Shown here in pieces: positions 5,136-52,014 of a stretch of 54,367 bases of DNA (position 1 is its first letter; every line of letters starts with the position of its first letter). The DNA lies in the NCBI GenBank assembly GCA_964619155.1, contig CAZUEM010000004.1, positions 1 through 54,367 on the forward strand, given 5' to 3'. Source of the DNA: an uncultured bacterium. Its GTDB lineage: Bacteria > Eisenbacteria > RBG-16-71-46. The notes beneath the pieces were generated by a model. That model was not told where the DNA came from. It did no database searches and was given only the letters and a program-made list of their open reading frames with translations. The position numbers and the translations under genes were made by a program.

Positions 5136-5160
5136 GCGCGCCGAGGACGCTGCGATTCCC

Positions 5161-5197
5161 CGCGGCCGGGCCGTGCGAAATGCACGGCCCGGCCGCG
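5161..5197 (+). terminator. Intrinsic-terminator-like hairpin downstream of the PpiD-like gene
   Basis: Perfect 16-bp stem (cgcggccgggccgtgc / gcacggcccggccgcg) with loop gaaat, 26 nt after stop TAG 5133-5135. There is no clean U-tract (ccgccttcc follows). Confidence 0.5.
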
Positions 5198-5251
5198 CCG
5201 CCTTCCGGAACGCACGGGATTCTCAGGTCGGGGGGCGAAACGGCCGATGGT

Positions 5252-6622: not shown

Positions 6623-6713
6623 GCGCCGCCGCGCCGTCCGCGGCCCGCAACCACCGCCCGCTTGACCCTGCCGGGGGAGCGGGGCACTGTGCGCGCCTTC
6701 CACTGGAGGACGC

Positions 6714-22863: not shown

Positions 22864-24699
22864 TCATTCGCCCTGGCGCTTCTCGATGCGCGCCCAGGCG
22901 TCCTTGAGCGTCACGGTGCGATTGAAGACCGGCGCCCCGGGCTTCGAATCCGCGTCGGGATAGAAGTAGCCCACGCGCTCGAACTGGACCGGCGTCCCCG
23001 CCGGCACGTCGGCCAGCGCGGCTTCGAGGCGGCAGCCGGTCACGACCTCGAGCGATCCGGGGTGGATGCCCGCGACGAAGTCCGCGCCCTCGGGCACGTC
23101 CTCGGGGTCCACCTGCGGGAACAGCGACTCGTAGAGGCGCACCTCGGCGCTCACGGCGTGCGGCGCCGACACCCAGTGGATCGTCGCCTTGACCTTGCGG
23201 CCGTCGGGGGCGTTGCCGCTGCGCGTGGCCGGATCGTACGTCGCCCGCACCTCGGTCACTTCGCCGGTCTCGGGGTCCTTCACGACGCCCGTGCAGCGGA
23301 CAAGGTACGCCGCGCGCAGCCGCACCTCGGCGCCGGGGGAGAGCCGGAAGTACTTCGGCGGCGGCGTCTCGCGGAAGTCGTCCTGCTCGATCCACAGCTC
23401 GCGCGAGAACGGCACCCGCCGCGTCCCTGCCGCCGGGTCCTCGGGGTTGTTCGCGGCCTCGAAGTGCTCGACCTGTCCTTCGGGATAGTTCTCGAGCACG
23501 ACCTTGAGCGGGCGCAGCACCGCCATGCGCCGCAGCGCGTGCCGGTTGAGGTCCTCGCGCACGCAGTGCTCGAGCAGCGCCAGTTCGACCCGGTTCTCGC
23601 GCCGCGCGACGCCGACGCGCTCCACGAAGTCGCGCAGCGCCGCCGCCGGGTAGCCGCGCCGCCGCATGGCCGAGATGGTCGGCATGCGCGGGTCGTCCCA
23701 GCCGCGCACGACGCCCTCCTGCACGAGGCGCAGGAGCTTGCGCTTGCTCATGACCGTGTGGGTGACGTTGAGGCGCGCGAACTCGTACTGGTGGGGCAGC
23801 GGCCGCGGCAGGTCGAGGGCCTCCAGCAGCCAGTCGTACAGCGGCCGGTGCGGGACGAACTCGAGCGTGCAGATGGAGTGCGTGACGCCTTCGATGTAGT
23901 CCGAGAGTCCGTGCGCGTAATCGTACATCGGGTAGATGCACCAGGCGTCGCCCGTCTGGTGGTGCGTCGCATGCCGGATCCGGTAGAGGATGGGGTCGCG
24001 CAGCCAGACGTTGTGTGAGTCCATGTCGATCTTCGCCCGCAGGGTGCGGGCGCCGTCGGGGAACTCGCCGGCGCGCATGCGCGCGAACAGCTCGAGGCTC
24101 TCGGCGGCCGGCCGCTCGCGCCAGCGGCTCGGGACGCCGGGTTCGCCGGGCGCGCCGCGCATGCGGTCCACCTCCTCGGCGGTGTGGTCACAGACGTAGG
24201 CGCGGCCTTTCTCGATGAGCCGCACGGCGTAGGCGTGGAGTTGCTCGAAGTAGTCCGAGGCGTAGAACGGTTCGAGCTCCGCGTCGCCGGCGGAGGCCGC
24301 CATCACCGGCGGCATGAAGAAGTCCTCGCGCCCCGCGACGTCCTGCGTCACGGGGGCCTCGTGCGCCTTCTTGAGGGCGAGCCGGTCGTCCGCCCAGCCC
24401 GCGACCAGCCAGCGCACGTCGGCGAGGATGGACTCGACGTACTCGACCTCCTCCTTCGCCGGGTTCGTGTCGTCCATGCGGAGGTTGCAGCGTCCTCCGA
24501 ACTGCTTCGCGATCCCGAAGTTGAGCACGATGGCCTTGGCGTGACCGATGTGCAGATAGCCGTTCGGCTCGGGCGGGAAGCGGGTGACGATGTTCGTGTG
24601 CAGCCCGCGGGCCAGGTCGGCCTTCACGATCTCGCGGATGAAGTCCTCGCGCTCGGCGGGCGCGGCGTCCGGCGTGCCGGTGGGGGTCGTCTCGCTCAT
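22864..24699 (-). CDS. glnS: Glutamine--tRNA ligase
   Basis: ATG 24699 (MSETTPTG..). Class I motifs: RFPPEPNGYLHIGHAKA (HIGH) and VMSKRKL (KMSKS). The C-terminal anticodon-binding beta-barrels have glutaminyl-type layout. Confidence 0.92.
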   Translation of the reverse strand: MSETTPTGTPDAAPAEREDFIREIVKADLARGLHTNIVTRFPPEPNGYLHIGHAKAIVLNFGIAKQFGGRCNLRMDDTNPAKEEVEYVESILADVRWLVAGWADDRLALKKAHEAPVTQDVAGREDFFMPPVMAASAGDAELEPFYASDYFEQLHAYAVRLIEKGRAYVCDHTAEEVDRMRGAPGEPGVPSRWRERPAAESLELFARMRAGEFPDGARTLRAKIDMDSHNVWLRDPILYRIRHATHHQTGDAWCIYPMYDYAHGLSDYIEGVTHSICTLEFVPHRPLYDWLLEALDLPRPLPHQYEFARLNVTHTVMSKRKLLRLVQEGVVRGWDDPRMPTISAMRRRGYPAAALRDFVERVGVARRENRVELALLEHCVREDLNRHALRRMAVLRPLKVVLENYPEGQVEHFEAANNPEDPAAGTRRVPFSRELWIEQDDFRETPPPKYFRLSPGAEVRLRAAYLVRCTGVVKDPETGEVTEVRATYDPATRSGNAPDGRKVKATIHWVSAPHAVSAEVRLYESLFPQVDPEDVPEGADFVAGIHPGSLEVVTGCRLEAALADVPAGTPVQFERVGYFYPDADSKPGAPVFNRTVTLKDAWARIEKRQGE

Positions 24700-24883
24700 G
24701 CCGGCAGGAAACGACACGAGGGCCCCGGCTGTCCACTCGCGGCGCCCCTTCGTCCGGCGGCCCGGCGCGCTCGTCGCGTGGACGGGGCGCGACGGTGCGG
24801 TCTCGGCTATCCTCATGTCCGTACGTCACGCCCGCAGGTCCCGGGTCCCCCGCCCGGCCGGGCGGCCCGGCCTGAACCCGATC

Positions 24884-27800
24884 ATGAACCCCACGACCCG
24901 ACGCCTGCTCACCGGCCTGCTGGCCATCGGTTGCGCGCTGTCCCCCGCGCCCGCGAACGCCGCCGGCGTTCCCGTCTCGACGGCTCCGTACGCACAGTCC
25001 GCGCCCCGGATCGTGGCCAGGCCCGGCGGGGGGGCCTGGGTGGCCTGGCTCGACGGGCGCTCGGGCTATTCGATCGACGTTTACGGCGCCATGCTCGATG
25101 CCGCGGGCACGCCCTCGACCGGCGGCGCCGACCAGGGCCTCGCGTTCACCGACATCACGTGCGTGAAGCGGGACCTCACGCTCGTCGCCGACGGCACCGG
25201 CGGGGCGATCGCGGCGTGGTCGGACAACCGCTGCAGCACTCCCGAGGGCTTCGACATCTTCGTGCTGCGGCTCGGGGCGGACGGCCGGCCGGCCGCGGGC
25301 TGGCCGGCGAACGGGAGGAACGTCTCCGCGGCTCCGGACTGGCAGGTCCAGCCCGCCCTGGCGCCGGACGGGAGCGGGGGCGCTTTCGTGGGATGGGTCG
25401 AACTGACCGGCTTCCTGCCCCGGGTCGTCGTCCACCACGTGCTCGCGAACGGAACGCTCGATCCGGCCTGGCCGGTCGCGGGCATCACGCTCGCCGTGGC
25501 GGGGGCCGAGGCCGCGTCTCCCGTCCTTGGCCCCGACGGCGCGGGCGGGTTCTACATCGCGTGGGGCGACCGCCGCGACGGCGACCTCGACCTGCGCCTG
25601 CAGCGGGTGTCGGGCACGGGGGCGATCGCCGCGGGCTGGCCCGCCGAGGCGATCGAGGCGTGCACCGCGCCGGACGAGCAGTTCGAACCGCGGCTCATCG
25701 CGGGCGTCTCGGGCGTCTCGCTGGCCTGGCTGGACCGGCGCGCGGAGGGCACCGCCCGCGTCTACGCGTGCCGCTTCCTGCCGAGCGGACAGCGCGCCCC
25801 GGGCTGGCCACTCGATGGCGTCGCGGTCGCGGCGGGCGGCGGGGCGCAGTCCGACCTCGTCGTCGCGCGCGCCGACGTCGGCGGCCTCCGGTTCGCCTGG
25901 GCGGAGGACCGCGGGCTCGGGAGCGGCCGCGACGTGTACGCGCAGCGCGTGGACTCGACGGGCGCCGTCGTCGCCGGGTGGCCGGCCTCCGGCGCCACGG
26001 CGTGCGCGGCGCCCGGCGACCAGTACGCGCCCTCGTTCACGCCCGACGGCGCGGGCGGGGCCTATTTCACGTGGACGGACGAGCGCGACACGCTGGCCGG
26101 CGGCCGCGACGTGTACGTGCAGCGCCTCGACGCCTCCGGGTCGGTGGCGGCCGGCTGGCCGGTGCACGGCTTCGCCCTGTGCGCGGACGCCGGGCACCAG
26201 CGCGAGCCCGTGCTGACGGGCAATGGCCGGGGCGGCGCGTTCGCCGTCTGGACCGACGGACGCAACGACGCCACCACGGCGGACGACATCGTCATGCGCG
26301 AGGTCGCACCCGCCGGTCCGGCGAGCGTCGGCGTGAGCGGCGTCACGGCCGCGCACCACGACGGGCAGACCTTCGTCCGCTGGAACGCGCCACCCGGCCA
26401 CGGCTGGACGTATCGCGTTTACGCCTCCGCCTCGCCGATCGCGGACGAGGGCGGCCTCGCCGCCGCCACGCTCGTCGGCACGGCGCGGGACTCCTCGGCC
26501 AGCGACGCGCGGCTCTCAGTCCTGCTCGGACAGGCCTGCGGCTACCGGACGGAGGCCGGCGGGCCGGAACTCGATCCCGCCGGGGGGCTCTTCGTCCGCA
26601 CCGTGCCCGCGCCGGGCGCCTCGTGGTACGCGGTGACCGCCCAGCCGGGCGCGCTCGGCGAGGACCGCACCGTGGCGGCCGGGAGCAACGCGCTCGCTTC
26701 CGCCGTCGCCGAGACGGTCGCCACGCCGCGTCCCGTCCTTCAGCGCACGGTCCCGTTCGGGGGGCGCGACGTCGAACTCTGGACGCTGTGGACCTGGGAC
26801 GAGGACGCCCCCGGGTTCCCGGCGATGGCCAACGAGGCCGGGCTGCCGTTCCCCTTCGGGCTGGTCCGGGGCGGTTCCCTCGGACCGCTCGTGCTCGGCT
26901 TCCACGCGCGCGGGGGCAGCCTGTTCGACGGCGTCGGCGGTTTCCTGCTCCCGGGCGAGTGGGTGCTCGCCCTCGACGACAGGCTGCCGAACGGCGAGAG
27001 CACGTTCTGGTTCGGATACCACCGCGCCTACGACGTGCGCACGGCTTCGAGCCCGCCGCCGATGGCCGGCGAGGTCGTGGGCTACACGGCGCGGCGCGTG
27101 GACTTCCTGCTCGACTGGGTGCGCCGCTCCTGCCCGGTGGACACGGCGCGCGTCTACGCCTACGGCTACTCGATGGGGGGCATGGGCGCGACCCAGCTCG
27201 CCCTGCGCTCGCCGGCGAAGGTCGCCGGCGTCATGACCGTGATCGGGCAGTTCGACTTCTCGTTCGAGGCCGACCCCAATCCCTCGTGCTGGTTCAATCC
27301 CGGCGGGCCGTTCCGCGCGCTCGCCGACCGGATCTGGGGCCCGGTGTCGGTGAACCTGCCGTCGGCCCCCGGCGGCACGCCCGTGTTCGATCTCCTGAAC
27401 GGCACGGCGGTCGCCGGGCAGGGCGCCCCCGGCGCGGACCTGCCTCCGCTCCTGTCCTTCAACGGCCGCAACGACGTCAACGTCGGCTGGGCCGAGAAGC
27501 CCCGCTTCTGGGCGGCGATGCAGGCCCACCGGCGCGGCGGCTGGTTCTACTGGGACGGGCGCGAGCACGGCGTCGCGGGCGCGTCGTGGATCCCCATGCA
27601 GACCCCGGCCGACCTCCTCGCACTGCGCACGGACCGGAGCTTCCCCGCGCTCTCCAACGGGGACGCGGACGGGGACCCGGGCGACGGCTCGCCCGCCAGC
27701 GGCGATTCCGTGGGCACCTTGAACGGCCACCTCGAGTGGGACGTGCCCCTGGAGGACGCGGCCGGCTGGAGCGTGACGCTCACGCTGCGCCCGCTCGAAC

Positions 27801-28324
27801 TGCTCGGACGCACGGTCCCGGCGCCGGAGTCGGCGCTCGTGGACGTCACGCCCCGGCGGCTGCAGTCGTTCGCCGTCGCGCCGTCGGAGCCCGTGCCGTA
27901 CCGGGTCGTGCGCGCCGCCGACGGGGCCGTCCTCGCCCGGGGTTTCGCCGTCGCGGACTCCGCCGGCGCCCTCACAGTGGCGGGCGTGCGCGTTCACCGG
28001 GCGGGCACGCGGATCGAGCTCGGGTCGCCCGCGCTCGCCGGCGTCGCGGGGACGGCCGGCGCGGCGGCGCTGCAGCTGGCGTGCGCCACGCCGGTCCGCG
28101 GCGGCGCGCTCGCGGCCGCGGTCGTGTGGCCCGCGGCGGAGGAGAGCCGGCTCGAGTTGCTCGACGTGGGCGGGCGCCGCGTCGCCACGCTCTTCGCGGG
28201 GCGGCCCTCGCCGGGGCCCGCGCGCTACGGCGCCCGCGGGGCAGCGCTCGCGCCCGGGCTCTACTTCCTGCGCGCCTCGTGCGGCGCCCGGACGCTCGCG
28301 CGCCGCGTCGTCGTGCTGCGCTGA
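24884..28324 (+). CDS. 1146-aa exported multidomain protein: ~8-blade repeat region, FN3-like linker, alpha/beta-hydrolase (esterase-like) domain, C-terminal sorting-like domain
   Basis: ATG 24884 with signal peptide MNPTTRRLLTGLLAIGCALSPAPANA. Eight tandem ~56-59-aa repeats. Nucleophile elbow GYSMGG (about nt 27164-27181). The C-terminus (RLELLDVGGRRVATL..GLYFLRASCGARTLARRVVVLR) resembles that of the protein at 20826..22808. Confidence 0.8.
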   Translation: MNPTTRRLLTGLLAIGCALSPAPANAAGVPVSTAPYAQSAPRIVARPGGGAWVAWLDGRSGYSIDVYGAMLDAAGTPSTGGADQGLAFTDITCVKRDLTLVADGTGGAIAAWSDNRCSTPEGFDIFVLRLGADGRPAAGWPANGRNVSAAPDWQVQPALAPDGSGGAFVGWVELTGFLPRVVVHHVLANGTLDPAWPVAGITLAVAGAEAASPVLGPDGAGGFYIAWGDRRDGDLDLRLQRVSGTGAIAAGWPAEAIEACTAPDEQFEPRLIAGVSGVSLAWLDRRAEGTARVYACRFLPSGQRAPGWPLDGVAVAAGGGAQSDLVVARADVGGLRFAWAEDRGLGSGRDVYAQRVDSTGAVVAGWPASGATACAAPGDQYAPSFTPDGAGGAYFTWTDERDTLAGGRDVYVQRLDASGSVAAGWPVHGFALCADAGHQREPVLTGNGRGGAFAVWTDGRNDATTADDIVMREVAPAGPASVGVSGVTAAHHDGQTFVRWNAPPGHGWTYRVYASASPIADEGGLAAATLVGTARDSSASDARLSVLLGQACGYRTEAGGPELDPAGGLFVRTVPAPGASWYAVTAQPGALGEDRTVAAGSNALASAVAETVATPRPVLQRTVPFGGRDVELWTLWTWDEDAPGFPAMANEAGLPFPFGLVRGGSLGPLVLGFHARGGSLFDGVGGFLLPGEWVLALDDRLPNGESTFWFGYHRAYDVRTASSPPPMAGEVVGYTARRVDFLLDWVRRSCPVDTARVYAYGYSMGGMGATQLALRSPAKVAGVMTVIGQFDFSFEADPNPSCWFNPGGPFRALADRIWGPVSVNLPSAPGGTPVFDLLNGTAVAGQGAPGADLPPLLSFNGRNDVNVGWAEKPRFWAAMQAHRRGGWFYWDGREHGVAGASWIPMQTPADLLALRTDRSFPALSNGDADGDPGDGSPASGDSVGTLNGHLEWDVPLEDAAGWSVTLTLRPLELLGRTVPAPESALVDVTPRRLQSFAVAPSEPVPYRVVRAADGAVLARGFAVADSAGALTVAGVRVHRAGTRIELGSPALAGVAGTAGAAALQLACATPVRGGALAAAVVWPAAEESRLELLDVGGRRVATLFAGRPSPGPARYGARGAALAPGLYFLRASCGARTLARRVVVLR
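25004..26310 (+). repeat. Protein-level tandem repeat array (8 units of ~56-59 aa), probable beta-propeller
   Basis: Read by eye, the units share the consensus P.l.pDG.GGa..aW.D.R.g...DvY.QRvd.sG....GWP..G...c.a.g.Q. Example unit starts: PDGAGGFYIAWGDRRDGDLDLRLQRVSGTGAIAAGWP, ADVGGLRFAWAEDRGLGSGRDVYAQRVDSTGAVVAGWP, PDGAGGAYFTWTDERDTLAGGRDVYVQRLDASGSVAAGWP. The DNA copies are diverged and are not exact repeats. Confidence 0.75.
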
Positions 28325-28328
28325 CGGC

Positions 28329-31160
28329 TCAGCCGTCCGCCTTCGGCCCGCGCGGCTGGACGAACTGCCAGCCGAAGCGGCCCTTCACGCACAGGTTGCC
28401 CTGCGTGATCGGGTTCTCGAGAGGCGAGGTGGCCTTGACCAGGCGGCCGTCCTGTTCGTGCATGCGCAGCGTGCAGCCCACGCCGCAGTAGGGGCAGATC
28501 GTGTCGGTCTCGCTCTGGCGCTCGGGATGCCACTCGCCGGCCGCGCGCAGGTCGAACTCGGACTTCGCCATGAGCGCGCCGGTGGGGCAGACGGCGATGC
28601 AGTTGCCGCAGTAGACGCACGCGGATTCGGGCAGCGGCACGTCGAGCTCGGTCGAGATGCGCGCGCCGAAGCCGCGCCCGGCGACCGCGATGGCGAACGT
28701 GTTCTGGTGGTCCTCGCCGCACGCCTCGACGCACTTGTAGCAGAGCACGCACTTCGCGTAGTCGCGGACGTACAGGTCGTTGTCCACCTTGACGGGCTGC
28801 GCGACCGTGGCGGCCACGCCGTCGGCGGGCGGTTCGTGGTGCCCGGCCTGCGCGTGGTCGCGGTCCTCGGGGGGCGCGGGCGGGCCGAAGCGGTCCGGTG
28901 CGCAGCCGTACTCGCGCTGGAGCGCCAGCATCTCGGGGGCGGCGGAGAGGTCCACCGAGGAGCCCAGCAGTTCGAGCACCAGCCGCCGCGAGTGGCGCAC
29001 GCGGGGCGATGCCGTGTGCACCACCATGCCGGGTTCGGCCGCGCGCGAGCAGCTCGGCGCCAGGACGCGCGCGCCCTCGACCTCGACCACACAGAGCCGG
29101 CAGGCGTTGGCCTGCGCCAGGGTCTTCAGGTAGCAGAGCGTCGGCACGCGGATGCCGAGCTTCGCGCAGGCGTCGAGCAGGGTGGCGCCCCGCGGCACCT
29201 CGACGGCCCGGCCGTCCACGGTCAGGGAGACCACGTCGGCGCGTTCGGGCGCGGGGGCGACGGCGGGCGATCGCACCGGGGCGGGGGCCGCCGACGGCGG
29301 CGCGTCGCCGAAGAGCGCGAACTTGCGCAGCGCCGACTCGACCGCCGCGCTCGCCGTCTGGCCGAGCCCGCAGATCGAGGCGTCGCGCATGTGCGAGCCC
29401 ACCTCGTCGAGCAGCACCAGTTCGTCGCGGAGCGACCCCCGCGGGCGGCCGCCGGCGAGGCGGTGGAGCGCCTCCTCCTGGCGCACCGTGCCGACGCGGC
29501 AGGGCACGCACTGGCCGCAGGACTCGTCGCGGAAGAACGCGGCGATGCGCAGCACGACGTCGCGCAGGTCCACCGAGTCGTCGAACACCATGACGACGCC
29601 CGATCCGAGCGTCGTGCCCGCGGCGCGCGCGGCCTCGAGCGTGAGCGGCAGGTCGAGTTCGTCGGCGGTGAGGAACGTCCCTGCGGCGCCGCCCAGCAGC
29701 ACGGCCCGGATCTCCCGGCCTTCGCCGACGTCGCCCGCCATCGCGACCAGTTCGCGCAGCGTGGTGCCCATCGGCACCTCGTAGACGCCCGGGAAGCGCA
29801 CGCTGCCGCTCAGGCAGAAGAGCCGTGTGCCGGTGGACTGCGCGGTGCCGCGCCGCGCGTAGGCCGCGCCGCCCTCGAGCACGATGCCCGGGACGTTGGC
29901 CAGCGTCTCGACGTTGTTGACGACGGTCGGGCGGCCGAACAGGCCGTGTTCGGCCGGGAACGGCGGCTTGCTGCGAGGCTCGCCGCGCCGTCCCTCGATG
30001 GACTCGAAGAGCGCGGTCTCCTCGCCGCAGATATAGGCGCCCGAGCCGCGCCGCACCTCGATGTCGAACGAGAACTCCGAGCCGAGGATGCGCTCCCCGA
30101 GCAGCCCGGCGGAACGCGCGGCCGACAGGGCGTTCGTCATGCGCTGGAACGCGAACGGGTACTCGGCCCGCACGTAGAGCCAGCCCTTCGTGCACCCGGC
30201 CGCGAACGCGGCGATGGTCATGGACTCCACGATCGCGAACGGATCGGCGCACAGCAGCACGCTGTCCTTGAACGTGCCGGGCTCGGATTCGTCGGCGTTG
30301 CAGACGAGGTGCTTCGGGCCCGCGGGCTGGGCGCGCACCGCCTGCCACTTGCGCGCGGTCGGGAAGGCGGCGCCGCCGCGGCCGACCAGACCGGCGGCGT
30401 CCACCTCGCGGATCACCGCCTCGGCGCCGATCTCGAGCGCGCGCGCGAGCGCCGCGTAGCCGCCCGATGCGCGGTAGGCCTCGAGGCGGGTCGGGTCCAC
30501 GACGCCGACGCGCCGCAGCAGCACCAGCGTCGGGTCGCCGCGCTGGGGGACGTCCGGGTGGGTCTCGCCGTCGGGCGGCGGCACCGGCCCCGCGAGCATG
30601 GTATGCACCGTGTGCGGCGTGACGTGGCCGATCAGGATCTCCTTCGGCTCCGCGCCGGCCTCGGTGAAGAGCGCCACGGGCCCGGCGTCGCAGAGCCCCA
30701 GGCAGGGCGAGCGCATCCAGCCCGAGGCCGCGTGGCCGTCGCCGTGCGGCAGCGGCGGACCGGCTTCGCGCTCGATCCGCTCGCACAGGCCGGACGCGCC
30801 GCGCGCCCGGCAGCCGATGTCGTCGCACACGTGCACGACGCGCTTCGGGCGCGGCGTGGTGGCGAGCAGCGCGTAGAAACTGGCCACCGACCAGCCTTCC
30901 GCCGGCGGCACGCCGAGGCGTTCGCAGACGTAGTTGAGCCCGCCGGCCGTGACCCAGCCCGCGCGAGCCTGCAGCGCCTGCAGCGCGGGCAGCAGGAGCG
31001 TGCGGCGCTCGCGCTGTTCGCGCCCGCCGTGCGCGACGCGCGCGTCGCGGTCCGAGCCGCGGGGGCCGCCGTCCCAGGCGGAGCGGGGAGGGCCGAGCAG
31101 CGCGTCCACGGCGGCGCGCTCGTCGGGGGTCGGGGCGGCGTCGAGGAGGCGGATGTCCAT
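28329..31160 (-). CDS. Fused NuoE-like / NuoF-like / NuoG-N-terminal-like iron-sulfur flavoprotein carrying the formate dehydrogenase N-terminal Fe-S modules (FdsG-FdsB-FdsA' fusion)
   Basis: ATG 31160 (MDIRLLDAAP) shares one nt with the upstream stop (TGATG). NuoE-type 2Fe-2S: VCDDIGC..SPCLGLCD. NuoF: GRGGAAFPTARKW, CNADESEPGTFKD, ESCGQCVPCRVG. NuoG-type 2Fe-2S: TVDGRAVEV..CRLCVVEV. Two 4Fe-4S ferredoxin motifs: CVLCYKCVEAC and CVYCGNCIAVCPTGA. The last 55 aa carry the MopB-type 4Fe-4S motif CPYCGVGC..CVKGRFGWQFV (nt about 28391-28496), and then the protein stops. Confidence 0.85.
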   Translation of the reverse strand: MDIRLLDAAPTPDERAAVDALLGPPRSAWDGGPRGSDRDARVAHGGREQRERRTLLLPALQALQARAGWVTAGGLNYVCERLGVPPAEGWSVASFYALLATTPRPKRVVHVCDDIGCRARGASGLCERIEREAGPPLPHGDGHAASGWMRSPCLGLCDAGPVALFTEAGAEPKEILIGHVTPHTVHTMLAGPVPPPDGETHPDVPQRGDPTLVLLRRVGVVDPTRLEAYRASGGYAALARALEIGAEAVIREVDAAGLVGRGGAAFPTARKWQAVRAQPAGPKHLVCNADESEPGTFKDSVLLCADPFAIVESMTIAAFAAGCTKGWLYVRAEYPFAFQRMTNALSAARSAGLLGERILGSEFSFDIEVRRGSGAYICGEETALFESIEGRRGEPRSKPPFPAEHGLFGRPTVVNNVETLANVPGIVLEGGAAYARRGTAQSTGTRLFCLSGSVRFPGVYEVPMGTTLRELVAMAGDVGEGREIRAVLLGGAAGTFLTADELDLPLTLEAARAAGTTLGSGVVMVFDDSVDLRDVVLRIAAFFRDESCGQCVPCRVGTVRQEEALHRLAGGRPRGSLRDELVLLDEVGSHMRDASICGLGQTASAAVESALRKFALFGDAPPSAAPAPVRSPAVAPAPERADVVSLTVDGRAVEVPRGATLLDACAKLGIRVPTLCYLKTLAQANACRLCVVEVEGARVLAPSCSRAAEPGMVVHTASPRVRHSRRLVLELLGSSVDLSAAPEMLALQREYGCAPDRFGPPAPPEDRDHAQAGHHEPPADGVAATVAQPVKVDNDLYVRDYAKCVLCYKCVEACGEDHQNTFAIAVAGRGFGARISTELDVPLPESACVYCGNCIAVCPTGALMAKSEFDLRAAGEWHPERQSETDTICPYCGVGCTLRMHEQDGRLVKATSPLENPITQGNLCVKGRFGWQFVQPRGPKADG

Positions 31161-33091
31161 CAGGGCGTTCCCGTGGCGTTCGCGAGCGCGGGCTCCACGC
31201 GCACCGCGCAGGCCTTGAACTCCGCCGTCCCCGACTTCGGGTCGGCGGCGTCGATGGTGAGGAGGTTGGTCGCCACGTCGTCGGGGAAGTGCAGCGTCAT
31301 GAAGACGAGGCCCGCGCGCAGCCCGGCGTCCACGCGGGCGGGGGCGGTGAGCGACCCGCGCCGCGACGTGACGCGGACGGGGTCGCCGGTCTCGACGCCG
31401 AGGCGCGCCGCGTCCTCGGGCGAGAGGTCGAGCGTCTCGCCGAAGTGCAGGGGCGAGGCGTAGCCGCTCGTCTGCACCCCCGTGTTGTACGACTCGAGCC
31501 GGCGGCCCGTGGTGAGCAGGAACGGGTATTCCGCGTCCGGCTTCTCCGCGGGGCCCACCCAGCGGACGACCGAGAACGGCGCCGGGCGCCCGCCGAGCGG
31601 CTCCTCCCAGAGGCGCCCGTGCAGGAACGGCGTTCCGGGGTGGGACTCGTCGGGGCAGGGCCACTGGATGCCCTGCAGCGCCTCGAGCCGGGCGTAGCTC
31701 ATGCCGCCCGCGAACTCCGGCGCGACCGCGCGGAACTCGTTCCACAGCTCCTCGGCCGACGGCGAGCCGAGATCGGTCCCGAACCGGCGCGCGAGCTCGG
31801 CGAGGATCCACAGTTCGTCGCGCGCGCCCTCGGGCGGCGCGACGGCGCGGCGCACGCGCTGCACGCGGCGCTCGCTGTTCGTGACCGTACCCTCGCCCTC
31901 GACCCAGGTGGCCGCCGCGGGCAGCACGACGTGCGCGAACTCGGCGGTCCGGGTCAGGAAGATCTCCTGCACGACCAGGTGCTCCAGCCCGGCGAGAAGC
32001 TGCTCGACGTGGCCGGCGTCGGCGTCGGACTGGGCCGGGTTTTCGCCGATCACGAACAGCGAGCGGAGATCCCCGCGGCCCATCGCTCGCAGCATCTCGG
32101 TCAGGTTCCAGCCGTATCGCGGCTGGATCGGCACGCCCCAGCGCGCCTCGAAGCGCGCGCGCACCGCCGGGTCGAGGATGTCCTGGAAACCCGGCAGCCG
32201 GTTCGGGATCGCGCCCATGTCGCCGCCGCCCTGCACGTTGTTCTGCCCGCGGAGCGGGTTGCAGCCGCTGCCGCGCCGCCCGACGTGGCCGGTGAGCAGC
32301 GTGAGGTTGATGAGCGCGAGGACGTTGTCCACCGCGTCGTGGTGCTCGGTGATCCCGAGCGTCCAGCAGATCATGGCCTTGCCGGCCTTCGCGAACGCGT
32401 GCGCCGCCTCGCGGATCACGTCGCCCGGCACGCCCGTCACGCGCTCGGCGTACTCGAGCGTGTACGGCTCGACCGCCTCGCGGTAGGCCTCGAACCCGGT
32501 CGTGGCGTGCCCGATGAAGCGCCGGTGGTGGAGGCCGGCGGCGATGATCTCGCGCCCCATGGCGTTCGCCAGCGCGATGTCGCTGCCCACGTCGAGCCCC
32601 AGCCAGACGTCGGCCCAGCGGGCGGACGACGTCCGCCGCGGGTCCATCACGTACAGCCGCGTGCCGCGGTGCAGCCCCTTCAGCAGGTGGTGGAACCAGA
32701 TGGGGTGCGCTTCACGCGCGTTCGAGCCCCAGAGGAAGACGACGTCCGTCTCCTCCACCTCCTGGTAGGAGTTCGTCCCGCCACCCGCACCGAAGACCGT
32801 CGCCAGACCGACGACGCTGGGCGCGTGTCAGGTACGGTTGCAGCTGTCGATGTTGTTCGTGCCGAACGCGACGCGGGCCAGCTTCTGCGCCAGGAAGTTC
32901 ACCTCGTTGGTGGACTTCGAGCAGCTGAAGATGCCGAGCGCGTTCGGCCCGTGCGCGTCGCGCACGCGGCGGAACCCCGACGCGGCGCGATCCAGCGCCT
33001 CGTCCCAGCTCGCGGGCCTCAGGCGGCCGTTCTCGCGGACGAGGGGCTGCGTCAGGCGGGCGTTGGGGCGGGGGCTGAAGCGAGCGGACAT
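31160..33091 (-). CDS. fdhA: Formate dehydrogenase catalytic (molybdopterin) subunit, selenocysteine-containing, lacking the N-terminal Fe-S domains
   Basis: ATG 33091 is preceded by GGAGGT. The in-frame TGA at 32830-32828 sits in the motif NNIDSCNRT-U-HAPSVVGLATVFGAGGGTNSYQEVEETDVVFLWGSNAREAHP, which is the active-site Sec/Cys-His context of FdhF/FdhA. The frame is continuous with ORF 31160..32758 (RGQNNVQGGGDMG and others). The ORF track shows the gene as two ORFs (32828..33091 and 31160..32758). Confidence 0.85.
32799..32815 (-). promoter_or_regulatory. Bacterial SECIS-like hairpin downstream of the in-frame UGA
   Basis: mRNA: UGA CAC GCG CCC AGC GUC GUC GGU CUG GCG AC. A 6-bp stem GUCGUC/GGCGAC (one G-U pair) closes the loop GGUCU and starts 12 nt after the UGA. 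As I recall it, the GGUCUG element sits at the same codon offset as in the E. coli fdhF SECIS. Confidence 0.7.
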
Positions 33092-33178
33092 GACCGACCT
33101 CCGGGAACGGAACGTGCGAGACGGACGACCGCAGGATGGACGAGGCCCCGCCCCGGTGGCAAGCGCGCGGCGCGACCG

Positions 33179-35179
33179 CTAGCGCAGGACGAAGACGCGG
33201 ACGAGCGTGTTGCCGATGCCGACGAGCGCCGCGCCCGCCACGAGGCCCGCGCACACGGGCTCGTGCGAGCCGATCCACAGCCGGTGCCCCGTCGTGCCGG
33301 GACGCTTCGCCCAGCGCCGGTTCGCGAGCTCGAAGAACGCGGCGCCGGCGAACATGGCCATCGTGGACTCCGGCGGCACCAGCACGCCGAGCCCGATCGC
33401 GAGCGGGCTCAGCCAGAAGCGCCCGCCGGTGACGATGCGCAGCACCTCGAAGGCGACGCCCGCCACGGCGGCCGCGATCATGGACGCGACGATCGAGTCC
33501 GTGAGCAGGGTGCCCTGGCCGCCCGCCCCGAAGATGGACGTGACCAGCTCCGAGACGCCCTTCCACTGCACCGCCGAGGGGAAGCTGAACTGGCCGTCCT
33601 CCGGGGCCATCGCGGCCTGGACGCTGGCGCCCGGCTTCCAGTCCGAAAGGAACAGGGCGTAGAAGAGCGGCGTCGAGGCGAGCGCGCCGGCGACGATGCC
33701 GATCGCGTGCCCGATCGCCTGCTGGCGGGGCTTGGCGCCGAGCATGTAGCCGGGCTTGATGTCCATGAGCAGGTTCGAGGCGTTCGACGCCACCTCGACG
33801 CACATGACGCCGGTCATGAGGTTCGTGGGCGGGTGCTTCGGGTCGAGGGCGCCGAACGTGAACTGCGGGATCTTCGAGAGCGCGCCGGTCGGGGTGATGC
33901 TGGTCATCGCGGTGCTGCGCGCCGCGATCAGCGTGAGCAGCACGATCATCGGGATGGCCAGCGCGCCCCACAGCGGGTGGACGCCGAACCAGTGCCACGC
34001 CATCCACACGCCGACGGCCCCGACCACCGGGATGCCCACGTACGAGACGGGCAGCGGCAGTTCGAGGTGCGCGACCGGGTCCCCGGCGGCGGGCCGGGCC
34101 GGCCCGGTCCGCCGGAACCCCTTCACCAGGTCGAGGAACACCTGCGGCTTCGCGAACAGCGAGACGAGCGACGCCGAGACCATGATCGCGATGCCCCACC
34201 ACAGCGACCAGCCGTTCACCACGTGGACGCGGCCGAAGACCGCGGTGCCGTCGGCGAGCGAGCCCGAGCGCGGCGCGATCTCGCCCGCGTGGATCATCCA
34301 CGGCACGAGCACCACGAAGTTGACGACCATGCCCACCAGCAGGCTGGTCGCGGTGCGGATGCCCATCAGGCCGCCGGCCCCGAACATCGCCCAGTCGAGC
34401 GCGGGCCGCAGCCCGAGCTGGCGGAAGTCGATCCCGGCCACGGTCGGCGCGGCGGCGAGGCCACGGTCCACGAGGCCGTAGTACCACTGGTCCAGCTCGC
34501 GCGGCAGGAACCATGCCCTCTCGAGCCCCGCGAGCCGCTCCTGGATCCAGCGCATGTACGACTCGCCGGAGACGAAGGTCACCGTCCCGGCGACGAGCGC
34601 GGCGAAGCCGAGGGCCTTGGCCTTGAACACGCCGATCGCCGCGTCGGCGGTGTAGAGCGTGTCGAGCACCACGCCGCAGGCGCGCCCCTGCGGGAACGGC
34701 TGCTGCTCGTCGTTGATGAACATCCGCTTCATCGGGAAGGCGACCAGCACCCCGAGCAGCGACAGCACGACGTTGAAGGCCAGCATGGGCAGCCACGGCA
34801 GCGGCTCGTTCTGGATCCACATGTAGGCCGCCAGCCCCGAGGTGAGCGGCCCGGTCATGTAGCCCGCCGCGGTCGCCACCGACTGCGTGGCGTTGTTCTC
34901 GAGGATGGTCATGTCCTTCGCGCCGAGCGTCGCGAGCAGCCGGTAGAGCGCGAACGACAGGATCACCGAGGTCAGCCCGACGCCGAGCGTCCAGCCCGTC
35001 ATCGCGCCCACGTAGAGGTTCGTGGCGCTCAGCAGCCCGCCGAGGACGAAGCCCGTGAGCGCGGCGCGGACCGTGAGCTGCGGCATGTCGCCGCGGTAGA
35101 CCTTTTCCAGCCACCAGCGGTCCTTCTGCTCGCGGCTCCAGTCGCGGACCTGCTGCTCGGTCAGGTGCTCGATCGCCAT
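33179..35179 (-). CDS. OPT-family oligopeptide transporter
   Basis: ATG 35179 (MAIEHLTEQQ..) is preceded by GGAGGG. 666-aa polytopic membrane protein with an OPT-like N-terminus (QLTVRAALTGFVLGGLLSATNLYVGAMTGWTLG) and about 14-16 hydrophobic segments. Confidence 0.8.
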   Translation of the reverse strand: MAIEHLTEQQVRDWSREQKDRWWLEKVYRGDMPQLTVRAALTGFVLGGLLSATNLYVGAMTGWTLGVGLTSVILSFALYRLLATLGAKDMTILENNATQSVATAAGYMTGPLTSGLAAYMWIQNEPLPWLPMLAFNVVLSLLGVLVAFPMKRMFINDEQQPFPQGRACGVVLDTLYTADAAIGVFKAKALGFAALVAGTVTFVSGESYMRWIQERLAGLERAWFLPRELDQWYYGLVDRGLAAAPTVAGIDFRQLGLRPALDWAMFGAGGLMGIRTATSLLVGMVVNFVVLVPWMIHAGEIAPRSGSLADGTAVFGRVHVVNGWSLWWGIAIMVSASLVSLFAKPQVFLDLVKGFRRTGPARPAAGDPVAHLELPLPVSYVGIPVVGAVGVWMAWHWFGVHPLWGALAIPMIVLLTLIAARSTAMTSITPTGALSKIPQFTFGALDPKHPPTNLMTGVMCVEVASNASNLLMDIKPGYMLGAKPRQQAIGHAIGIVAGALASTPLFYALFLSDWKPGASVQAAMAPEDGQFSFPSAVQWKGVSELVTSIFGAGGQGTLLTDSIVASMIAAAVAGVAFEVLRIVTGGRFWLSPLAIGLGVLVPPESTMAMFAGAAFFELANRRWAKRPGTTGHRLWIGSHEPVCAGLVAGAALVGIGNTLVRVFVLR

Positions 35180-35230
35180 GCGGCCCTCCGGGTGCGGATC
35201 GGGAGCCGGCACCTTAGCGCGCGCGCCGCC

Positions 35231-37976: not shown

Positions 37977-38819
37977 TCAACGGCGGGCGGGGAGGCCGGC
38001 GAGCAGCGCGAGCAGCGCCTCGGCGGCGCGGCGGCGGCCCTCGGCGTTCAGGTGCGAGCCGTCGTCCGTGTAGCCGGGGAACATGGCGTACGCGGTGCGG
38101 CCGCCGAGCGCGATGGTCTCGCGGGTGCCGTCGGGCCGCGTCGACTCGATCGCGGCGAGGTCGAAGAGGCGCCCGCTCGCGCCGTATTCGCGCCGCAGCG
38201 CCTCGTTGAACTCCTCGCGCTTGAAGTTGGACGCGTAGCGGCCCGGGGCCTGGCCCAGCAGCTTCTTCAGGGCCGCGCGCGGGCCGGCCTGGACGCGCAC
38301 CAGCGGGGCGGTGACGTGCACGAACGCCACGTCCGGGTGTTCGGCCTCCAGCCGCGCCATGGTCTCGCGGTAGTGGCGCAGGACGGGCTCCACGTCGGTC
38401 GTGTCGATGATGTCGGCGTAGCAGTACTTGTGGAACGCGACCCGCACGGGGCCCGCCGCGCCGGCCGCGACGTTGCGGGCGAAGTCGTCGGTCTTGAGCG
38501 CCGGGTCGCCGTTGCGGCCGACCAGTCCGTGCACGATCGCACCGACGCTGTCCGCCGGCGCGGCGTCGAGCACGCGCAGGCCCAGCTCCGGACGGGCGTC
38601 CGCGATCTCGCGCACGCCGTCCATGACGTTTCCGCCCACCGACTGGTGCCCGAAGTAGATCCGCGTCGCCGCCAGCGCCGCCCACGCCGAGTCCGGCACG
38701 TCCTCGAACCGCGCCATCCGCACGACCTCCTGTCCGCCGTCGCCGCCGCCGGGCGAGCATCCGCCGGCGAGCGCCGCCAGCAGGACGACCGCCACCGCCG
38801 CCTTCACCGTCCGCTTCAT
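37977..38819 (-). CDS. Lipoprotein with an SGNH/GDSL-like hydrolase or acyltransferase fold
   Basis: ATG 38819 is preceded by GGGAGG. Signal plus lipobox: MKRTVKAAVAVVLLAALAGGCS. The C-terminal block-V-like motif is DDGSHLNAEGRRRAAEAL. The N-terminal block YFGHQSVGGN may carry the nucleophile Ser. The fold assignment is tentative. Confidence 0.6.
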   Translation of the reverse strand: MKRTVKAAVAVVLLAALAGGCSPGGGDGGQEVVRMARFEDVPDSAWAALAATRIYFGHQSVGGNVMDGVREIADARPELGLRVLDAAPADSVGAIVHGLVGRNGDPALKTDDFARNVAAGAAGPVRVAFHKYCYADIIDTTDVEPVLRHYRETMARLEAEHPDVAFVHVTAPLVRVQAGPRAALKKLLGQAPGRYASNFKREEFNEALRREYGASGRLFDLAAIESTRPDGTRETIALGGRTAYAMFPGYTDDGSHLNAEGRRRAAEALLALLAGLPARR

Positions 38820-38860
38820 CGGGGCCTCCCGTCCGGGCCGCGCATCGCCGCCGCGGCGCC

Positions 38861-39109
38861 TCACGACGCCTTGCGCTTGCGCTCGACGAACGCGGCGATG
38901 CGCTCGATCGAGTCGAGGTTCTCGGGCACGATCTCGTCGTCCTCGACCGTCACGCCGAAGGTCGTCTCGAGGAACCCCATGATCTCGAGCACGCCGGTCG
39001 AGTCCACCACGCCCAGGTCGAGCAGGGAAGCCGTGTCGGTGAGCCCGGCGGCATCCTGCACGAAAAAGTTCCCCGTCACGAACTCGCGCACCCGCTTTCT
39101 CGTGTCCAT
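38861..39109 (-). CDS. Stand-alone acyl/peptidyl carrier protein
   Basis: 82 aa. Phosphopantetheine attachment context LLDLGVVDS(37)TGVLEIMGFLETTFGV. It starts 8 nt after the ligase stop. The upstream part of ORF 38861..40423 is a shadow extension. Confidence 0.8.
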   Translation of the reverse strand: MDTRKRVREFVTGNFFVQDAAGLTDTASLLDLGVVDSTGVLEIMGFLETTFGVTVEDDEIVPENLDSIERIAAFVERKRKAS

Positions 39110-47736: not shown

Positions 47737-47764
47737 GTGGGGCCCCGCGGCCGGTCGCTACATT
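47735..47764 (+). promoter_or_regulatory. Candidate sigma-70 promoter for the urate-catabolism operon
   Basis: TTGTGG (47735-47740), an 18-nt spacer, then TACATT (47759-47764), about 40 nt upstream of ATG 47806. The -10 hexamer is the same as in the tRNA-Pro(GGG) candidate promoter. Motif match only. Confidence 0.3.
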
Positions 47765-47805
47765 GCCGCATTCTCGCGCCGCCCATCCTCCAACCCCGCG
47801 GGCCC

Positions 47806-49002
47806 ATGAACTTCGTCCACGAGTGGCTGAACCTCGTCCTGCGCTGGGCCCACGTGATCGCCGCCATCATGTGGATCGGCGACTCGTTCCTCTTCATGTG
47901 GATGGACGCCTCGCTGCGCCGGCCGGCCCGGACGCGCGAGGGCGACGTCGCGGGCGAGTTGTGGATGACGCATTCGGGGGGCTTCTACGAGGTCGTCAAG
48001 CACCGCACGCTGGGCGGGCTGCCGGAGCGGCTCCACTGGTTCAAGTGGCAGAGCTACTGGACCTGGATCACGGGCGTGCTGCTCCTGCTGGTCGTCTACG
48101 GCCTCGGCGGGCGCGCGATGCTCCTGCCCGCCGAATCGGGCCTCGCCCACGGGGCCGCGGTGGCGATCGCCCTCGGGGTGCTCGCCGCTTCGGTGGCCCT
48201 CTACGAAGGCCTGTGCCGCGTGCCCGGCCTGCGCGGCGCGGCGTTCGCGCTCGCCGGGCTCGCGCTCGTCACCGCGCTCGCGTGGGCGCTCGGCCGGGTG
48301 TACTCGCCGCGCGCCGCGTTCCTGCTCACCGGGGCGGCCGTCGGCACGGTCATGACCGCGAACGTCTTCCTCGTGATCATCCCGGGCCAGACCCGCATGC
48401 TGGCCGCGACCCGCGAAGGCCTCCCGCCGGACGCCTCGCACGGCGCGAAGGCCAAGGCGCGCTCGACCCACAACCACTACCTGACGCTGCCGGTGCTGCT
48501 CGTCATGCTCTCGAACCACTTCCCGTCGCTCTGGAGCGCGGAGCACGCGTGGGCGGTGCTCGCGGCGCTCTTCGTGTTCGGGGCGGGCGTCAAGCGCCTC
48601 ATGAACGGCCCGCGCACCGCGCCATGGCCGGTGGCCGCGGGCACGCTCGCCGCACTCGCGGCCGCGGTGGCGCTCACGCTGCCCCCGGGCCCGGGCCCCG
48701 AGGCGCGCGCGCTGGCGGACGCGCCGGCCGTGGACGACGCCACCGCGCGGGCCATCGTCCAGGCCCGGTGCACGAGCTGCCACGCCACGCGCCCCGGTAA
48801 CGAGGCTTTCGCGGCCCCGCCCGCGGGCGTGGTGCTGGAAAGCGTCGAGCAGATGCGCGCGTACGCCGACCGCATCGTCTTCCGCGTGGTCGAGACGAAG
48901 ACCATGCCGCTCGGCAACCTCACGGGCATGACCGAGGAGGAGCGCCGCACGCTCGGCGCCTGGGCGTGGCGGCAGTCGCGCGCGGGACGGGCGGCGCCGT
49001 GA
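47806..49002 (+). CDS. puuD: Membrane-bound urate hydroxylase PuuD-like protein with a C-terminal cytochrome c domain
   Basis: ATG 47806 (MNFVHEWLNLVLRWAHVIAAIMWIGDSFLFMW). Multiple TM helices. The heme-c motif CTSCH lies at nt 48769-48783. It sits at the head of the allB, alc-uraD, uraH, allA operon. Confidence 0.75.
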   Translation: MNFVHEWLNLVLRWAHVIAAIMWIGDSFLFMWMDASLRRPARTREGDVAGELWMTHSGGFYEVVKHRTLGGLPERLHWFKWQSYWTWITGVLLLLVVYGLGGRAMLLPAESGLAHGAAVAIALGVLAASVALYEGLCRVPGLRGAAFALAGLALVTALAWALGRVYSPRAAFLLTGAAVGTVMTANVFLVIIPGQTRMLAATREGLPPDASHGAKAKARSTHNHYLTLPVLLVMLSNHFPSLWSAEHAWAVLAALFVFGAGVKRLMNGPRTAPWPVAAGTLAALAAAVALTLPPGPGPEARALADAPAVDDATARAIVQARCTSCHATRPGNEAFAAPPAGVVLESVEQMRAYADRIVFRVVETKTMPLGNLTGMTEEERRTLGAWAWRQSRAGRAAP

Positions 49003-50390
49003 GCGGCGCCGGCTTCGTGCTGCGCGGCGGCCGCGTGCTCGCCGGGGGCCCGCCGCGACCCGCCGACGTGGTCGTGCGCGCGGGCCGCGTCGCCGCCGTC
49101 GCCCCGCACGGCTCCACCGGCGCGGGCCTGCCCGTGCACGACGCGGAGGACCTGCTCGTCATGCCCGGGGTCGTGGACGCGCACGTGCACGTCAACGAGC
49201 CCGGCCGCACGGAGTGGGAGGGCTGGGAGAGCGCGGGGCTGGCGGCCGCCGCCGGCGGCACCACGACCGTGGTCGAGATGCCCCTGAACGGCATCCCGCC
49301 GACCACCGGTCCGGAGGGCGTACGCGCCCGGGCCTCGGCGCTGTCCGGGAAGTGCCGGGTGGACGTCGCGCTCTGGGGCGGCATCGTCTCGGCGGATCCC
49401 GCCCCGCTGCGCGAACTGGCCGCGCTCGGCGTCGCCGGCTTCAAGTGCTTCCTGAGCCCTTCGGGGGTCCCCGAGTTCCCGCACGTGGGCGAGGCCGAAC
49501 TCGACGTGGTGCTGCCGGTGGCGCGGGAACTCGGGCTGCCCGTCCTCGCGCACGCGGAGTGGCCCGCGGCGCTCGATCGCGCCAGGGCCACCCTGCCCGC
49601 GGGTGCCGATCCGCGCGCCCATGCCACCTGGCTCGCGTCGCGGCCGGTGGAGGCCGAGACCGACGCCATCGGGCGGCTCGTCTCGCTCGCGCGCCGCCAC
49701 GGCGCGCGCCTCCACGTCGTCCACGTCTCGAGCCGCGAGGGCGCGGCGCTCGTGGCGCGCGCGCGCGCCGAGGGCCTGCCGCTCTCGGGCGAGACCTGCC
49801 CGCACTACCTCGCGTTCGAGGCGGCCGAGGTGCCGGACCGGGCGACGCACTACAAGTGCGCGCCCCCCATCCGCGAGGCCGCGCACCGCGAAGCCCTGTG
49901 GAGCGCCCTCGCGGACGGCGGACTCTCGCTGGTGGCGAGCGACCACTCGCCCTGCCCGCAGGGGATGAAGTCGCTCGAGCGCGGCGACTTCATGGCCGCC
50001 TGGGGCGGCATCGCCTCGCTGCAGCTCCTGCTGGCCGCGACCTGGACCGGCGCCGCCGAGCGCGGCCACGACCCCGAACGGCTCGCGGACTGGCTCTGCG
50101 CGGCGCCCGCCGCGCTCGCCGGGCTCTCCGGACGCAAGGGCGCGATCGTCCCGGGCGCCGACGCGGACTTCGTGGCCTGGGACGAGACCGCCACGTTCCG
50201 GGTGGACGTGGACCGCCTGCACCACCGTCACCCGCTGACGCCCTGGCGGGGCCGTACGCTGCGCGGCGTCGTCCACGAGACGTGGCTCCGCGGCCGTCTC
50301 GTCTATCATCGCGACCGGGGTTTCCCGGGCCCGCCCGGCGGAGCCCTGCTCGAGGTCCGGCGCCCCGCCGGCCCATCCGCGGCGAACTGA
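48999..50390 (+). CDS. allB: Allantoinase
   Basis: GTG 48999 overlaps the puuD stop (GTGA). Cyclic amidohydrolase motifs: PGVVDAHVHVNEPGRTEWEG, GFKCFL (carboxylated Lys context) and SDHSPC. Confidence 0.85.
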   Translation: MSGAGFVLRGGRVLAGGPPRPADVVVRAGRVAAVAPHGSTGAGLPVHDAEDLLVMPGVVDAHVHVNEPGRTEWEGWESAGLAAAAGGTTTVVEMPLNGIPPTTGPEGVRARASALSGKCRVDVALWGGIVSADPAPLRELAALGVAGFKCFLSPSGVPEFPHVGEAELDVVLPVARELGLPVLAHAEWPAALDRARATLPAGADPRAHATWLASRPVEAETDAIGRLVSLARRHGARLHVVHVSSREGAALVARARAEGLPLSGETCPHYLAFEAAEVPDRATHYKCAPPIREAAHREALWSALADGGLSLVASDHSPCPQGMKSLERGDFMAAWGGIASLQLLLAATWTGAAERGHDPERLADWLCAAPAALAGLSGRKGAIVPGADADFVAWDETATFRVDVDRLHHRHPLTPWRGRTLRGVVHETWLRGRLVYHRDRGFPGPPGGALLEVRRPAGPSAAN

Positions 50391-50403
50391 AGAAAGGAGT
50401 TCC

Positions 50404-51996: not shown

Positions 51997-52014
51997 GCCG
52001 GAAGAGGAGGACAC

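Follow-up and report, generated by a model that had tools for sequence, protein, structure and literature searches.

Formate dehydrogenase (FDH) alpha is the most widespread bacterial selenoprotein, and its gene is frequently found close to the sel genes or within one operon with them (PMC5029168). The (Sec/Cys)-His...Arg-Gly-Gln motif, in which Sec is selenocysteine, is strictly conserved in FDHs (PMC8808070). In E. coli, the determinants of the selenocysteine insertion sequence (SECIS) are G23/U24 in the loop and a bulged U17, which is needed by the E. coli SelB (PMC8659212). The DNA analyzed here, the whole 54,367-nucleotide (nt) stretch of contig CAZUEM010000004.1 from an uncultured bacterium of the Eisenbacteria (hereafter the window, 54 kb), contains on its minus strand an FDH catalytic subunit gene with a single TGA in its reading frame. 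It is very probable that this TGA (32830-32828) is the Sec codon of one 643-codon gene for a cytoplasmic Mo/W-pterin FDH, and that a hairpin at 32815-32799 is the SelB-binding part of its SECIS. An earlier note on this DNA had proposed that the catalytic subunit is a selenoprotein that open reading frame (ORF) callers cut into two halves, and the conserved TGA, the alignment with Sec140 of the E. coli FdhF, and the frozen synonymous sites of the hairpin described below bear this out.

The in-frame UGA and its conservation

The features of the catalytic subunit gene are as follows.

31160..33091, minus strand: gene for the FDH catalytic subunit, 643 codons including one UGA (proposed Sec88), with the start ATG at 33091 and the stop TGA at 31162-31160
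32830-32828, minus strand: the in-frame UGA, proposed codon of Sec88 from the alignment to FdhF and solved FDHs and from the TGA kept in orthologs
32827-32825, minus strand: codon of His89, directly after the UGA, aligned with His141 of the E. coli FdhF
32251-32249, minus strand: codon of the predicted catalytic Arg281, aligned with Arg333 of the E. coli FdhF
33098..33102, minus strand: Shine-Dalgarno-like GGAGG, 6 nt upstream of the ATG at 33091, as read from the sequence

From the ATG at 33091, the minus strand contains a single frame, and the TGA at 32830-32828 is its sole interruption. The earlier note had described two same-frame ORFs parted only by this TGA; the reading frame is indeed continuous across it, and so is the third-position GC content (0.92-0.97 on either side, with unchanged phase), which is a sensitive indicator of the frame because the window DNA is so GC-rich (~75%). 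The 532-amino-acid (aa) ORF that was called downstream (31160..32758) merely starts at the first GTG, 24 codons downstream of the TGA, so that 23 codons lie between the TGA and the called start; the stop-to-stop ORF after the TGA is 31160..32827 on the minus strand. Translation through the TGA gives ..NNIDSCNRT*HAPSVVGLATVFGAGGG.., in agreement with the active-site context ..NNIDSCNRT-U- that had been noticed, and the nucleotides around the UGA on the minus strand are AAC CGT ACC TGA CAC GCG CCC AGC GTC GTC GGT CTG GCG ACG. When both strands of the window were scanned, this was the sole in-frame TGA flanked on each side by a coding signal. A promoter and terminator scan of 28000-33500 found none.

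The read-through product (643 aa) contains the Pfam domains PF00384 (Molybdopterin) and PF01568 (Molydop_binding). With Cys as a placeholder for Sec, it scored 670.5 bits against the NCBIfam model TIGR01591 Fdh-alpha (cutoff 666.25) over profile positions 52-672, and solved FDH structures matched it at E = 1e-161 to 1e-141. The E. coli FdhF is 39.7% identical to it over 632 aligned positions, starting from FdhF residue ~60, and in this pairwise alignment Sec140 is matched by the UGA, His141 by the residue after it, and Arg333 by Arg281. The UGA position also aligns with the X (Sec) of the F420-dependent FDH 9t1s_L and with the Cys of the Cys-type FDHs 7qv7_S and 7bkb_D, and thus lies in the catalytic Sec/Cys column, a check that the earlier note had proposed. 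Both catalytic motifs, T-U-H-A-P and P-L-R-G-Q-N-N-V-Q-G, are present. The N-terminal [4Fe-4S] domain is not in this polypeptide, whose match to TIGR01591 begins only at profile position 52.

Orthologs were collected by a scan of GTDB species representatives, which yielded 80 loci, and the loci L001, L002, L087, and L091 were added. The 80 loci come from metagenome-assembled genomes (MAGs) of Eisenbacteria, Gemmatimonadota, Vicinamibacterales and other Acidobacteriota, Planctomycetota, Thermoleophilia/Gaiellales, Acidimicrobiales, Binatia, and Myxococcales, and their proteins are 67-82% identical to the window protein. TGA was found, flanked as in DSCNRT*HAPSV(V/A)GL, in 78 of the 78 GTDB loci with sequence at this site and in the four added loci, one of which (L091) is from the cultured Allonocardiopsis opalescens. 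Overall, the TGA is kept in 81 of 81 orthologous loci covering the site, from at least 7 phyla, Actinomycetota included, and with 67-100% protein identity. Further carriers of the UGA form are the cultured Halopolyspora algeriensis and Actinoallomurus iriomotensis, as well as large contigs such as ERZ25039492 contig_2926 (4.16 Mb) and OY969804.1 (3.79 Mb). The coding sequence is conserved on both sides of it: the N-terminal 87 aa are in frame and 56-100% identical, and the C-terminal part is 67-100% identical. The orthologs therefore do not end at the TGA; termination there without downstream homology is what the earlier note had named as evidence against Sec. Among the codons +1 to +23 after the TGA, the protein is near-invariant whereas the synonymous sites vary, which indicates that this region is translated.

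A search of 5.8 billion proteins showed how these genes are represented in databases. At least 115 of the best 120 homologs are cut off at the same point; these homologs are 76-100% identical to the query (68% for P0094), and essentially all are 495-579 aa long and cover 77-85% of the query. The one full-length match among the best 120 is P0094 (locus L086), located on a single 2.2-kb metagenome contig. It was considered as a Cys form and rejected, since the codon at the site is CGA (Arg), one step from TGA; its hairpin is intact.

The conservation of the TGA and of the flanking coding sequence across orthologs effectively rules out two explanations in which no Sec is involved. The first is a pseudogene with a nonsense mutation at the active-site codon. 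Such a gene would account for the two fragments of 87 and 532 aa given by gene callers and for a window without sel genes (see below), yet all 81 orthologs, from at least 7 phyla, share the TGA and show purifying selection before and after it, neither the active-site His nor the Arg has been lost, and the downstream partner gene is also intact and translationally coupled. A pseudogene is hardly conceivable under these circumstances. The second is genuine termination at the TGA, with an enzyme made up of two polypeptides, one of 87 aa and another of ~532 aa produced by reinitiation, and no Sec/Cys ligand. A natural split is tolerated elsewhere in this family, in which the [4Fe-4S] domain is encoded by another gene. 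However, the codons +1 to +23, including the one for the catalytic His, precede the first possible start and are ~100% conserved at the protein level while their synonymous sites vary; gene callers place the start of the orthologs at arbitrary sites, so that the products range over 495-579 aa; in Cys-form relatives the frame runs uninterrupted through the site; and the metal ligand would be missing. We regard two polypeptides as very improbable.

The hairpin downstream of the UGA

Two RNA features can be placed downstream of the UGA.

32815-32799, minus strand: apical hairpin of the predicted SECIS, with the 5' arm GUCGUC (32815-32810), the loop GGUCU (32809-32805), and the 3' arm GGCGAC (32804-32799)
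32787..32827, minus strand: possible extended SECIS with a lower stem, in which RNAalifold paired +6, +7, +9, and +10 with +43, +42, +40, and +39, respectively; the Rfam SECIS_3 and SECIS_2 alignments span this stretch

The hairpin GUCGUC-[GGUCU]-GGCGAC, which had been predicted twelve nt past the UGA, is present at these positions. Counted from the U of the UGA, it occupies +15 to +31, starting 12 nt after the UGA, and its loop (+21 to +25) contains G23/U24. A 6-bp hairpin with a GGUCU loop occurs only once on both strands of the window; ~0.4 would be expected per window and ~4e-6 at any given position. The E. coli fdhF gene (NC_000913) reads TGACACGGCCCATCGGTTGCAGGTCTGCACC, with GGTCTG at +21 to +26, and the offset is identical to that in the window gene, in agreement with the GGUCUG element and the codon offset given in the earlier note. 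The four pairs of the lower stem fall on invariant first and second codon positions and therefore neither support nor contradict an extended SECIS.

A synonymous-site entropy test was used in place of covariation analysis, on a codon alignment of 78 distinct orthologs with 268 four-fold-degenerate codon columns. The mean third-position entropy over these columns was 1.26 bit. Only 5 of the 268 fell below 0.3 bit, and these are the consecutive codons +5 to +9 (Val Val Gly Leu Ala), which form the stem-loop; none of 100000 permutations matched this frozen block (p < 1e-5). At codon +7, 78 of 79 sequences have GGT, even though it is the rarest Gly codon, making up 8.7% of the Gly codons in these genes. 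These results, which are the decisive ones for the hairpin, show that it is constrained at the RNA level. The stem substitutions seen in orthologs all keep the pairing (U:G to U:A or C:G, and U:A to U:G), and 372 of 372 alignment cells pair, with two pairs varying on one side only and four never varying.

Several results nevertheless weigh against a SECIS or against Sec. By RNAalifold and pair counting, no doubly compensated base pairs were found in the stem among the orthologs, in which the stem hardly varies; the compensatory substitutions that the earlier note proposed to look for were thus not seen, the changes being one-sided and compatible with pairing. In a covariation analysis of the ortholog alignment, the observed value could not be told apart from shuffled controls. 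The folding energy of the 69-nt region was not distinguished from shuffles (z = -0.29), a measure that is uninformative in DNA of 75% GC. In the comparison with SECIS models, the best Rfam matches, RF01989 SECIS_3 with 18.4 bits (gathering threshold 63) and RF01988 SECIS_2 with 15.1 bits (gathering threshold 70), are far below threshold, and both are registered exactly on the UGA at 32830-32828. A bulged U17 is not present, since in the predicted 6-bp stem, which has no interruption, U17 forms a pair with A31; the need for this bulge is a trait of the E. coli SelB and may or may not extend to the SelB of these phyla. Finally, selA, selB, selD, and tRNA-Sec were not found in the 54-kb window by tblastn with the E. 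coli SelA, SelB, and SelD, by ARAGORN, or by Pfam scans of 42 predicted ORFs. The window contains three tRNAs, none of which is tRNA-Sec, and the Pfam scans of its predicted genes showed housekeeping functions only.

Relatives with another residue at the site served as a control for the hairpin. Cys-containing members of the same family were found in Streptomyces, Nonomuraea, and one Frankiales MAG; they have TGT or TGC at the site, and their frame is continuous through it. The members from cultured actinomycetes are named 'molybdopterin oxidoreductase family protein' or 'formate dehydrogenase subunit alpha' in databases. The hairpin has decayed in 3 of the 4 Cys loci for which DNA was obtained, with a GGCCU or GGCUU loop and 3-4 of the 6 pairs left. 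The fourth, L093 from the Frankiales MAG (GCA_025963245.1), has Cys (TGC) and yet a complete hairpin, GUUGCC-GGUCU-GGCGGC. The hairpin with its GGUCU loop is thus present in 81 of 81 UGA forms versus 1 of 4 Cys forms (Fisher p ~4e-5, a value that ignores shared ancestry). From their codons and hairpins, L093 (Cys) and L086 (CGA) look like recent conversions with a fossil SECIS.

It could be argued that the synonymous sites are frozen by a constraint other than a SECIS, such as an antisense element, codon bias, or a recombination hotspot. The lack of doubly compensated pairs, the unremarkable folding energy, and the sub-threshold Rfam scores would fit this, as would the hairpin still being present in one Cys form (L093) and one CGA form (L086). 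In contrast, the frozen sites match the stem-loop exactly and lie at the canonical distance from the UGA, a disfavored codon (GGT) is fixed among them, and the hairpin was lost in 3 of the 4 Cys forms, the two exceptions fitting recent conversions. Another constraint is therefore very improbable as the source of the frozen block, and the SECIS remains the preferred explanation.

Besides L086, a second locus carries Arg at the site. In the Streptomyces canus locus L090 (P0288/P0289/P0292), the codon at the Sec/Cys position is CGT (Arg), and the Streptomyces canus-type proteins are degenerate at the active site, with the RGQ motif lost and with C-terminal deletions, while the operon with fdhD is kept. 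The Arg-form members could be remnants in decay after Sec was lost, or they could be enzymes that have acquired a new function.

Selenocysteine genes and reading of the UGA

Sec genes were found next to an orthologous operon in another genome. In locus L069, from an Acidimicrobiales MAG, selB, selD, selA, and tRNA-Sec directly follow the FDH operon at a distance of 3-7 kb, and the SelB, SelD, and SelA proteins all scored above the curated NCBIfam cutoffs.

4626-8898 of locus L069: sel gene block, with tRNA-Sec on the complement at 8803-8898

This adjacency agrees with the pattern reported previously (PMC5029168).

The UGA might instead be read as another amino acid (Trp, Gly, or Cys) via a reassigned code, a suppressor tRNA, or near-cognate decoding, in which case the hairpin would only stimulate read-through. 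UGA followed by C is a leaky stop context, and Sec insertion itself is something that we infer here. On the other hand, TGA is the stop of 31 of the 39 predicted window genes, including the FDH gene itself, and such use as a normal stop excludes a reassigned genetic code; furthermore, the position is that of the Sec/Cys metal ligand, the loop has the SelB determinants at the E. coli offset, and Sec genes adjoin the operon in L069. Insertion of an amino acid other than Sec is therefore very improbable.

If the UGA is a Sec codon, it would presumably be decoded as in E. coli. By analogy, the SelB-GTP-Sec-tRNA(Sec) complex would dock on G23/U24 of the loop during decoding of the UGA, so that Sec would be inserted and termination would be avoided. 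Sec88, His89, and Arg281 would then form the active site at the metal.

The partner subunit, the operon and known systems

The catalytic subunit gene is followed by a second gene, whose parts are listed below.

28329..31160, minus strand: electron-transfer (diaphorase) subunit, 943 aa, assigned from Pfam, NCBIfam, and PDB relatives of the HydB/NuoF/FdsB type
31013-30660, minus strand: NuoE-like 2Fe-2S domain of the 943-aa subunit
30404-29316, minus strand: NuoF-like flavin mononucleotide/NADH and 4Fe-4S part of the 943-aa subunit
29234-28572, minus strand: part of the 943-aa subunit similar to the N-terminus of NuoG (NuoG-N), 2Fe-2S and 4Fe-4S
28356..28502, minus strand: Molybdop_Fe4S4 [4Fe-4S] domain (PF04879), residues 887-935 at the C-terminus of the 943-aa subunit

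The ATG of the 943-aa gene overlaps the FDH stop codon (TGATG). The [4Fe-4S] domain that is absent from the catalytic polypeptide is found at the C-terminus of this subunit: residues 887-935 match TIGR01591 positions 1-49, the upstream FDH gene holding positions 52-672, and the domain aligns to FdhF residues 6-53 (E = 3e-15) with the cluster-ligand pattern CxxCxxxC...C visible. The FDH beta subunits 6vw7_B, 7e5z_B, and 6tg9_B match the 943-aa protein at E = 1e-104 to 1e-88.

In 79 of 82 comparison loci, the FDH gene is immediately followed by a homologous gene or gene pair, and the other three contigs end at most 150 bp past the FDH gene. The gene order, with the pterin domain first, then NuoE/F, and then NuoG-N plus Fe4S4, is the same in every comparison locus with room downstream. 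This split and rotated layout was seen in the window (28329-33091) and in L002-L082, L087, and L089-L092, covering at least 7 phyla. NuoEF and NuoG-N plus Fe4S4 are encoded by separate genes in most lineages and are fused only in the clade of the window, with its closest relatives L002, L004, L006-8, L010, L012, and L087. The nearest relatives that are not split are at most 47% identical. Judging from the order of the domains, the arrangement is the canonical fdsG-fdsB-fdsA order cut inside fdsA and rotated. Relatives of 1365 aa were considered as all-in-one NuoEF-FDH fusions and rejected, since their sequence has a GltD-like insert. In the actinomycete loci L089, L090, and L091, the operon is followed by fdhD, the gene for a sulfurtransferase needed for FDH maturation, which was not found in the 54-kb window. 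An OPT-family oligopeptide transporter gene (35212..33179) lies upstream on the same strand, and such a neighbor was found only in the window and L001.

Formate electrons would pass to the [4Fe-4S] cluster, which the translationally coupled 943-aa subunit would supply in trans through its C-terminal domain, then through the NuoG-like Fe-S chain to the NuoF-like flavin site, and from there to NAD(P)+. Assembly of the two subunits is implied by this route. The NAD(P)+ link is predicted from domain homology only, and the structures most similar to the NuoF-like part belong to electron-bifurcating hydrogenases, with HydB as close as FdsB.

The retrieved members from uncultured soil phyla (Eisenbacteria, Gemmatimonadota, Vicinamibacterales, Thermoleophilia, and others) were all of the Sec form, and no description of the split, rotated FDH layout was found in the searched literature. 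These loci might represent an NAD-linked FDH family that is undescribed in the searched papers, with a split and rotated operon, a [4Fe-4S] cluster donated in trans by the diaphorase C-terminus, and only Sec forms among its uncultured soil members. We put this forward tentatively, as a proposal with somewhat less than even chances.

Several other features of the window were observed. A 1246-aa ORF with a strong coding signal and no Pfam match (24584-28324, plus strand) converges on the FDH operon, the two stop codons lying only 4 nt apart. Two further ORFs likewise have a strong coding signal and no Pfam match (5180-6622, plus strand, 480 aa; 37977-38864, minus strand, 295 aa). A SurA-N/PPIase-domain protein (1275-5135, plus strand) is unusually long (1286 aa), its domains making up only ~1/4 of the length. 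At 47737-52862 on the plus strand, there is a compact purine/urate degradation cluster with genes for a membrane urate oxidase-like protein (PF06181), an amidohydrolase, an allantoicase fused to OHCU decarboxylase, HIU hydrolase, and ureidoglycolate lyase.

The practical consequence is a repair of annotation, in which the 87-aa and 532-aa products become one 643-aa selenoprotein. The same truncation error affects nearly all of the best 120 homologs, including those from cultured actinomycetes such as Allonocardiopsis opalescens; if the interpretation is true, gene-centric surveys misdescribe members of this family because gene callers truncate nearly all of them. The source organism is a probable Sec decoder, and Eisenbacteria-like, Gemmatimonadota, Vicinamibacterales, and Thermoleophilia MAGs would join the lineages with a selenium-needing FDH, so that formate oxidation in these largely aerobic soil lineages would depend on selenium. 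The split, rotated operon appears to be a clean natural case of a cofactor-binding domain moved to a partner subunit and may be of interest for engineering FDHs for CO2 reduction. FDHs are known as the most common bacterial selenoprotein family, and current understanding is not overturned; what is mildly novel is limited to the split, rotated operon and to the predominance of Sec forms among uncultured soil phyla.

Among the closest known systems, the Cys members from Streptomyces and Nonomuraea share with the window family the split operon of a Mo subunit, NuoEF, and NuoG-N plus Fe4S4, as well as the motif DSCNRT-C-HAPSV..PLRGQNNVQG; P0136 of this group is 64% identical to the window protein. 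They differ in having NuoEF and NuoG-N on two genes, with fdhD after them, whereas in the window the two are fused and no fdhD was found. The E. coli FdhF has Sec, His, and Arg in the same columns, and its UGA is likewise followed by CAC. The E. coli fdhF SECIS is similar in being a stem-loop 11-12 nt past the UGA with GGUCU at the identical offset and G23/U24 conserved, but the window stem consists of six uninterrupted base pairs closed by a 5-nt loop and lacks a bulged U17. Unlike FdhF, the window protein lacks its own N-terminal [4Fe-4S] domain, and its partner is NuoE/F/G-like instead of the hydrogenase-3 complex. The FdsGBA-type FDHs of Rhodobacter capsulatus (6tg9) and Cupriavidus necator (6vw7) and the Methylobacterium extorquens FDH1 (7vw6/7e5z) have the same module set, namely NuoE-like, NuoF-like, NuoG-N-terminal-like Fe-S, [4Fe-4S], and Mo/W-pterin domains. 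In these enzymes, the alpha subunit is undivided and the order canonical, whereas the window family separates the [4Fe-4S] domain from the pterin domain and has the order rotated; the PDB sequences of the former have Cys or another residue at the site, in contrast to the window family, in which it is mostly Sec.

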